From contig CP147779.1 of NCBI GenBank assembly GCA_037308085.1, forward strand, positions 480,001 through 544,000: a DNA stretch of 64,000 nt. Direction: 5' to 3'. The notes below the pieces were generated by a model. It ran no database searches, had not been told where the DNA came from, and saw only the letters and a program-made list of their open reading frames with translations. Positions 7,178 to 8,468 of the stretch are shown here, piece after piece (within the stretch, counting starts at the first letter, position 1; each line of letters starts with the position of its first letter). This DNA comes from Promethearchaeati archaeon SRVP18_Atabeyarchaeia-1. GTDB lineage: Archaea; Asgardarchaeota; Atabeyarchaeia; Atabeyarchaeales; Atabeyarchaeaceae. Made by a program: the position numbers and the translations under genes.

Positions 7178-8468
7178 GTGGAAGAATACGCTGTCAAAGA
7201 CTTAAGCCTAGCACCTCAAGGACATAGCAAAATAGATTGGGCGGAATCTCACATGCCAGTTCTCATGATAATTCGTGAACGATTCGCAAAAGAGAAGCCA
7301 CTGGCTGGCAAGAGAGTATCAGCTTGTCTTCACGTAACCAAAGAGACGGCCGTGCTAGCAAGGACGCTCCGCGCGGGTGGAGCCAAGGTCGCGCTGTGCG
7401 CATCCAATCCTTTGTCGACGCAAGACGATGTTGCAGCCGCTTTGGCCAACGAGGGTTTCAACGTATATGCTTGGAGAGGCCAGAATACAGAGGAATACTA
7501 TGATTGCGTAAACAACGTGCTTAACTACGCCCCTAATATCACTCTGGACGACGGGGCTGACCTGATCACAAGCATTCACACGAAACGCCAAGAACTATTC
7601 AAAGGAGTGATAGGTGGATGCGAAGAAACTACTACTGGCGTAATCCGACTCAGGGCCATGGCAAAGCAGAAAGTCCTCAAATACCCAGTGATAGCTGTCA
7701 ATGATGCACAGACCAAATGGTTCTTTGACAACCGCTATGGAACTGGGCAAAGTAGCATCGACGGAATATTGCGGTCGACCTCGGTTCTACTTGCTGGAAC
7801 AAAAGCAGTTGTCGCCGGGTACGGTTGGTGCGGGAGAGGGATAGCGACTCGATTGAAAGGTATGGGATGCAGGGTGATTATCTCTGAGGTAAACCCCCTA
7901 AGAGCTCTTGAAGCAGTGATGGATGGGTTTGACGTAATGCCCATGTCTGATGCAGCAAGACAAGCAAGACTTTTCGTGACGTCCACTGGAGACAAGAAGG
8001 TGATAACAAGGGAGCATATAGACGCCATGCAGGATGGATCAATACTTGCTAATGCTGGGCACTTCAACGTCGAAATATGGGTTCCTGACCTTGAGAGTTT
8101 GTCTGTAAAGAAGAGAGAGATAAGGTCGAACGTCGAGGAATACACCCTAAAGGATGGACGACGAATATACCTATTGGCTGAAGGGAGACTCGTCAATCTG
8201 GCTGCGGCTGAGGGGCACCCCAGTGTTTGCTTCAGCAGTAACTAGCTGGGCAACTGGACAGGTCATGGATATGAGCTTCTCAGATCAAGCTCTCTCAGCT
8301 GAATACCTAGCTAAGGAAGGAAAAACACTGAAACCAGAGGTCTACCTTGTTCCGGCAAGAATAGACAATCTCGTCGCCGAATTGAAGTTGGAGTCGATGG
8401 GGATCAAGATAGACAAACTGACAGAGGAGCAGAAGGAGTACTCGCAAGGATGGACTGAGGGGACATAG
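7178..8468 (+). CDS. ahcY: S-adenosylhomocysteine hydrolase, two exons (7178-8225 and 8260-8468), 418 aa after splicing
   Basis: [54 protein letters not shown]; the frame break is explained exactly by a 34-nt BHB intron. Confidence 0.95.
8226..8259 (+). other. BHB-type mRNA intron in ahcY (34 nt)
   Basis: h ACC/GGT, central helix CCAG/CTGG, bulges TG^T and AC^A, inner stem TTGC/GCAA plus CAGC/GCTG; excision joins G+AG into a Glu codon. Confidence 0.9.

Follow-up and report, generated by a model that had tools for sequence, protein, structure and literature searches.

The gene ahcY, which encodes SAH hydrolase (AhcY), a core enzyme of the methylation cycle, is interrupted by an insert of 34 nt in Atabeyarchaeia-1, a member of the Asgard archaea, which are among the closest microbial relatives of eukaryotes. 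The genome is closed and consists of a single contig (C1) of 2,808,651 bp, and the stretch analyzed here (the window; 64,000 nt) corresponds to C1:480001-544000. The host had been guessed to be apparently Asgard in the initial annotation, which was made from the sequence letters alone, and that guess was right. The designations G, L and f refer to genomes, loci and families, respectively. The following features were located in the window:

7178 to 8225, forward strand: ahcY exon 1, with a GTG start, codons 1-349 and the first base (G) of the Glu350 codon; matches TIGR00936 positions 1-347
8217 to 8219, forward strand: 5' strand (ACC) of the exon-exon helix h
8220 to 8223, forward strand: exon strand (CCAG) of the 4-bp central helix H, whose second pair is C-G or U-A among relatives
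8224 to 8226, forward strand: 5' bulge TG^T; the BHB rule (PMC2738675) predicts the 5' cut after 8225
8226 to 8259, forward strand: predicted 34-nt BHB intron, frame-breaking, with an in-frame TAG stop at 8243-8245 and a sole equivalent boundary; orthologue in G001
8227 to 8253, forward strand: intron hairpin h', with TTGC (8227-8230) opposite GCAA (8250-8253), inner CAGC (8233-8236) opposite GCTG (8245-8248) and an 8-nt loop
8254 to 8257, forward strand: intron strand (CTGG) of the central helix H
8258 to 8260, forward strand: 3' bulge AC^A; 3' cut predicted after 8259
8260 to 8468, forward strand: ahcY exon 2, from the AG of Glu350 to a TAG stop, with 68 further codons; matches TIGR00936 positions 349-416
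8261 to 8263, forward strand: 3' strand (GGT) of the exon-exon helix h
8265 to 8267, forward strand: in-frame ATG (Met352), 5 nt 3' of the intron, on which a split-gene reading is based

The reading frame of ahcY breaks at the motif EGHPS, as had been noticed initially, and the unspliced frame ends at the premature stop as a product of 355 aa. Once 8226-8259 is excised, the frame is open over 418 aa and the motif GHPSEVMDMSF is restored, and this is the unique 34-nt cut that yields the 418-aa product, as all alternative placements fail. The BHB positions previously named for the insert are correct base for base, and the boundaries fixed by homology coincide with both predicted sites of the splicing endonuclease EndA, that is, with a cut after the second base of each bulge. 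The two exons abut on the AhcY model. The family test (TIGR00936/NF004005) gives a full-length match that includes the GHPxxVMD motif and the C-terminal tail, and an intact AhcY orthologue aligns with solved AhcY structures over positions 3-418. The C-terminal part that is lost without splicing contains adenine-binding and dimer/NAD-contact residues. A second intact ahcY, which had been named as part of a possible refutation, was sought in the closed genome and is absent from it. The gene 3' of ahcY (window 8552-9199, forward strand) has the look of an OB-fold and winged-helix protein (RPA32-like, by eye), gives no NCBIfam match and sits in a row of genes for translation that includes aIF2-beta. 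Another gene of the window (3487-4386, reverse strand) encodes a membrane protein with GLGD and PGLP motifs that is presenilin-like by eye and has no NCBIfam match.

The strict BHB motif is frequent, with 815 all-Watson-Crick matches on one strand of the genome, and neither a strict nor a relaxed genome-wide scan gave an excess over a mirror-geometry control, which is a form of the motif unusable by EndA. Because the motif is common by chance, it is weak evidence alone, and discovery needs protein homology. The weight of the evidence lies in the fact that boundaries fixed by the protein land on both cut sites, for which the chance is about 1e-6 (Watson-Crick pairs only) to 4e-5 (G-U allowed). 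A spliced alignment that is blind to the motif places the intron boundary at offset 0 from the cut site. As in archaeal BHB motifs, all four pairs of H are Watson-Crick, h has 3 bp, h' has at least 4 bp and the two 3-nt bulges lie on opposite strands. Among strict matches of up to 60 nt, the ahcY motif is also the only one whose energy is within 3 kcal/mol of the optimal fold, vs. two in the mirror control. The 81-nt region has no extra stability relative to shuffled sequences (z 0.59), and the exact BHB is less favourable than the ensemble by 1.3-1.9 kcal/mol, since the pair U8224-A8253 allows a competing, slid register with a central helix of 5 bp; the pairing probability of the central helix is 0.67-0.91 at 37 C. 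After splicing, the site itself is a small hairpin of exon bases whose 7-nt loop, cut after its sixth base, resembles an anticodon loop, and such exon hairpins may attract insertions.

An insert of 34 nt is present at the same base in G001, a genome of the same genus. It is identical to the Atabeyarchaeia-1 insert at 29 of 34 positions with the stems unchanged, the differences being confined to loops and bulges or to a change from U.G to U-A, and it is identical to the intron of isolate LC30. This orthologous intron in an independent assembly counts against the assembly artefact that had been named as a possible refutation. Between the two ahcY genes, synonymous sites differ by 67-87% and non-synonymous sites by 6-10% in both exons (pN 0.056 and pS 0.87 in exon 2), values that point to purifying selection on both. 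The ahcY gene of G002, from the same family, is intact at Glu350. The Glu350 codon is interrupted by 20-191 nt in 16 of the 239 Asgard genomes with an ahcY match, a count that is a lower bound. The carriers belong to four families: two to f1, one to f18 (191 nt), three to f20 (20-22 nt) and ten, in seven genera, to f6 (31-59 nt), which we take to be Thorarchaeia.

Among 23 distinct introns at this site, the length modulo 3 is 0, 1 and 2 in 2, 11 and 10 introns, respectively. At least three central pairs are formed in all 23, all four in 15 and the full motif in 11, whereas the null expectation is 0.15 for at least three pairs and 4e-5 for the full motif. Of 21 aligned sequences, 13 have C-G and 7 have U-A as the second pair of the central helix, a compensatory exchange of the kind that had been expected in relatives and that is matched in 0 of 500 shuffles; paired cells make up 93% of the BHB alignment vs. 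8-46% of slid controls, and since the sequences are related, these counts do not represent independent events. The first h' pair occurs as four pair types among the distinct introns. A G.A mismatch is found in the central helix of seven relatives and h is absent in some, so that an enzyme of relaxed specificity is needed there. The structure is conserved in these alignments while the intron sequence and length vary.

A scan for the exact pattern at the Glu350 site, with AGY codons and introns of 15-45 nt, covered 185,579 genomes as well as metagenomes. It detected true ahcY introns in Asgard records, in records matching the Asgard loci and in further records whose introns are Thorarchaeia-like, and nowhere else. 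Pattern matches in bacteria and unrelated DNA are not ahcY, and a match in Desulfurococcales is an assembly gap. The Thorarchaeia introns share a GCATTCG-like inner loop, and 15 of 15 Thorarchaeia carriers have GAC instead of GAT three codons downstream; both features go beyond the needs of a BHB. The 59-nt intron of G246 (L052:1445-1503, approximately) contains two CATTCG hairpins and may be one intron nested in another. No Rfam match was obtained for the 191-nt intron of G037 (L021:1313-1503, approximately).

Six more intron positions, with BHB or relaxed-BHB motifs, were identified in ahcY by motif-blind spliced alignment. The ahcY genes of f20 (L029, L045-L047) contain five introns, at residues 150, 184, 295, 345 and 350. 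Two of these lie 15 nt apart and are probably removed in order, as one interrupts the flank of the other. All six genomes of f18, and one of f7, have an intron at KWE^FDN, and G037 has three ahcY introns. A complete central helix is found at nearly all of the further introns but not at protein-level indels; indels of the latter kind in L043, L044 and L060 were rejected as introns. With three to five introns per gene in two lineages, vs. about 1-2 per 50,000 aligned codons outside ahcY, the gene is a hotspot.

The initial annotation had also suggested that more introns may hide as frameshifts in the genome, and five further genes of Atabeyarchaeia-1 bear this out:

C1:383798-383838 (L096:1461-1501): cbf5, 41 nt in the Asp codon of GTLD, BHB, frame-breaking; also in G001, G002 and G037
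C1:443949-443979 (L197): valS, 31 nt, relaxed BHB, frame-breaking; also in G001 and G002, i.e., in 3/3 family members
C1:305604, forward strand: pcm, 28 nt, frame-breaking, BHB-type; also in G002 and G037
C1:980286, reverse strand: mtaP, 35 nt, frame-breaking; 39 nt in G001 and 38 nt in G002
C1:320569, reverse strand: the TIGR00375 gene, 54 nt, frame-breaking, BHB-type; 41 nt in G002

The proposed genome scan of frameshifted genes for BHB motifs succeeded by way of protein homology, by which six sparse interrupted genes have been found so far in Atabeyarchaeia-1, and failed as motif-only scanning. The cbf5 intron, of 32 nt in G037, occupies a position that we take to be the crenarchaeal cbf5 intron site, and the known cbf5 intron type appears from these alignments to extend to Asgard archaea; in family f20, cbf5 is intact. 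The valS and mtaP motifs are relaxed, with three central pairs, and the interrupted valS is the sole valS found in Atabeyarchaeia-1. The t6A synthase gene kae1 (L277, L292-L300) is split at GPG^LGP in 12/12 genomes of f2, f7, f18 and f20 and intact in the other 20 genomes searched. Its introns are 14-32 nt long. Of the 10 that were extracted, all are at offset 0 and nine form the complete set of four central pairs; covariation is seen in the exon helix, which is about 8 bp long. Like valS, kae1 is essential. In G003, presumably Odinarchaeum, a 34-nt frame-breaking intron with a perfect BHB interrupts the actin gene at PERMY^SVWIGG (L251:15634-15667; G003:C1:535634), whereas actin is intact in G014. 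BHB-like inserts were also found in G037, in a nadE-like gene (33 nt, C1:1619887, forward strand) and a ppsA-like gene (30 nt, C1:1661667, reverse strand), both named from their motifs and not by a family scan.

The surveys from which the intron density was obtained cover part of each proteome and are biased to conserved regions. In the comparison with G002, the ahcY intron is the only mRNA intron specific to Atabeyarchaeia-1 in 93,000 codons, and three introns were found in 103,000 codons in the comparison with G003. A candidate at C1:821213 (forward strand) proved to be the end of a 4Fe-4S protein, and a 24-nt in-frame insert in mtaP was rejected as an intron candidate. The rRNA operon (C1:450742-457820) has several inserts of 32-106 nt relative to G002 that are probably rRNA introns.

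In a quick tree of AhcY with 67 rows, 17 changes are needed to account for the site-350 intron in 20 carriers, and the carriers, which stand beside intron-less sisters, are no more clustered than shuffled labels. As the intron-less rows were hand-picked by genus, the tree shows turnover and not its rate. The homology of the Thorarchaeia introns to one another is clear, which implies repeated precise loss or horizontal spread there, while the unlike intron sequences of different families would fit separate gains at a permissive site. A donor for the ahcY intron was sought elsewhere in the genome, and neither a shared 14-mer nor a match with up to 8 mismatches was found; an origin by copying of a tRNA intron was rejected, there being no matching sequence. 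A long co-conversion tract was rejected as well, since synonymous identity is raised in just a few codons around the site (0.40 vs. 0.37 far away), a rise that is indistinguishable from structural constraint.

Atabeyarchaeia-1 encodes two EndA paralogues, one with and one without the apparent catalytic Tyr/His/Lys, and one RtcB. The catalytic domains of the two EndA subunits are marked by C1:202619-202873 and C1:624258-624518. Asgard EndAs are reported to be (alpha-beta)2 enzymes, in which the L1 loop is linked to broad specificity (PMC5829648), and 92-95% of the tRNA genes in these genomes contain introns (PMC11291895). Two tRNA genes of the window (3056-3187 and 12980-13059) were found by Rfam and missed by ARAGORN; the former is 132 nt long and therefore carries introns.

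The 34 nt are very probably a real BHB intron of the ahcY mRNA, as judged from the sequence evidence, which also supports the early proposal that EndA/RtcB splicing reaches a central metabolic mRNA in this organism. In the mechanism that we infer, the last exon bases of the pre-mRNA would pair with the 3' end of the intron in a hairpin whose fold is possible and conserved, and the two-subunit EndA would cut at 8225/8226 and 8259/8260 according to the known EndA rule. RtcB would then ligate G to AG, by which the Glu350 codon and the frame would be rebuilt, and the excised intron would be released as a small circle or a linear piece. The 418-aa SAH hydrolase would be made from spliced mRNA only, and the 355-aa product of unspliced mRNA would lack the C-terminal 69 residues. 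In lineages with intron-rich tRNA and rRNA, a broad-specificity EndA may let mRNA insertions persist wherever a BHB can form. They would persist mainly in the most conserved motifs, where nothing but precise loss is viable, and the Glu350 site may have seen repeated gain, loss or exchange.

The ahcY intron agrees with an archaeal BHB intron in motif geometry, in its boundaries, in the conservation of structure and in the presence of EndA and an RNA ligase in the host. The closest known case is the intron in the cbf5 pre-mRNA of Sulfolobales and Desulfurococcales (Watanabe 2002; Yoshinari 2006; PMC2738675), where the cut falls between bulge bases 2 and 3 (PMC2738675). Both are short, frame-breaking BHB introns of a coding sequence with a conserved motif, an (alpha-beta)2 EndA and lineage-specific losses. 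The Asgard set differs in gene, phylum and scale, with seven ahcY positions, up to five introns per gene and about ten genes, and it is patchily distributed, whereas the cbf5 intron reflects one ancestral gain. HVO_1309 of Haloferax volcanii is likewise an mRNA substrate of EndA, with a BHB-bounded intron of 46 nt (PMC7714728; PMC10485636), but this intron lies in the 5' UTR without effect on the reading frame and is cut by an alpha2 enzyme. The non-canonical tRNA introns described from Atabeyarchaeia and Freyarchaeia (PMC11291895; bioRxiv 10.64898/2026.10.13.758758) come from the same organisms and have the same size range and BHB boundaries, with repeated gains and no sequence copying between introns. 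The Asgard intron census (bioRxiv 10.64898/2026.10.13.758758) deals with tRNA only and states that splicing in an Asgard cell has been demonstrated for none of its new inserts, and the main text of these two reports contains no mention of mRNA introns or cbf5.

Group I, group II and spliceosomal introns also interrupt coding sequences with a preference for conserved sites. The ahcY intron differs from them in being, at 34 nt, too short for a ribozyme core of hundreds of nt, in containing no ORF and in its ends, which are TT...AC and not GT-AG; no Rfam match was found in five intron-bearing loci, and the ahcY intron is not of the group I or group II type. IRE1 is unrelated to EndA, recognizes two stem-loops and not a BHB, and is regulated. 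The splicing of XBP1 and HAC1 mRNA by IRE1 and RtcB in eukaryotes (PMC4090602) offers an analogy in its short intron, its use of a protein nuclease and a tRNA-type ligase, and the change of frame.

The splicing of ahcY is most likely the constitutive clean-up of a tolerated insertion. As a refinement, it may be regulated, with the intron tying AhcY output to the EndA load or to SAM/SAH status, e.g., by methylation of the precursor; this is possible but doubtful, and constitutive removal is more likely. Feedback through the intron has been proposed for cbf5. The hotspot character of ahcY would agree with regulation, as would the marginal, switch-like stability of its BHB and the conservation of the Thorarchaeia inner loop, which splicing does not need. 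Three of the six interrupted genes of Atabeyarchaeia-1 (ahcY, mtaP and pcm) touch SAM by-products or use, and cbf5, valS and kae1 touch RNA modification or charging. However, close relatives are free of the intron (G002; sister pairs), its presence is scattered in a hand-picked sample, and intron sequences are unlike between families, with no Rfam match. Moreover, detection is biased to conserved genes, and actin, ppsA and nadE lie off the SAM theme.

It is very unlikely that ahcY is instead a split or recoded gene, in which exon 1 ends at the TAG (8243-8245) and exon 2 starts from the ATG at 8265, or in which a frameshift occurs inside the insert. The in-frame ATG 5 nt past the intron, the gene numbering of the published annotation, which fits two called genes (PMC11291895), and the frame of exon 2, which is open through the insert (ORF 8154-8468), are in keeping with such a reading, but no restart is available at kae1 GPG^LGP, valS, KWE^FDN or actin. 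Insert lengths fall in all three phases, including stop-free in-frame ones, so that no single frameshift accounts for them and the pattern is not that of programmed frameshifting. Read-through would add 7-11 or more residues to the invariant GHPSEVMD, and a split or frameshifted gene leaves a conserved, covarying BHB at the exact boundaries unexplained. Cleavage by EndA with the pieces mostly degraded and not ligated is highly improbable: yeast TSEN does cleave mRNAs without splicing them (PMC10485636), but the frame is restored by exact ligation alone and the genes are conserved and single-copy, so that decay alone would leave no enzyme. A dead gene or an assembly error is barely credible in view of the orthologous intron of an independent genome, introns at the Glu350 site in more than 20 independent assemblies, purifying selection on both exons without a second copy, and the presence of introns in valS and kae1, which cannot be pseudogenes.

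Reviews up to 2023 recognize cbf5 as the one archaeal gene with a coding BHB intron, and HVO_1309 as the one with such an intron in its 5' UTR. No report of Asgard mRNA introns, be it in ahcY, kae1, valS or actin, was found in a search that lay largely outside subscription journals, and an earlier report is possible. The chemistry of this type of splicing is known, whereas its spread into many protein genes, including multi-exon genes, in Asgard archaea appears to be new. As the interrupted protein genes number about ten, one of them with five introns, and come from six or more Asgard families, such splicing looks far commoner than the one coding case known before would suggest. EndA/RtcB splicing of mRNA is quite probably widespread across Asgard genes, including multi-exon genes and actin. 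That this spread is combined with the use of ahcY, mtaP and pcm as a regulated switch tying the SAM/SAH cycle to RNA processing is considered unlikely; if true, it would mean that the sister group of eukaryotes controls mRNA without a spliceosome and in a way that determines the reading frame.

Asgard annotations hold truncated or split core genes, by which metabolic reconstruction and marker-gene phylogenies are affected. Sister genomes that differ at one site provide a testable system for the arrival and loss of BHB introns. If widespread splicing is true, protein enzymes would splice mRNA as a matter of course in the lineage from which eukaryotes arose, and the spliced genes would include actin, a eukaryotic signature gene. 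Asgard ribosomes would have to cope with transcripts that need processing first, which would bear on the debate over introns and over how the nucleus arose.
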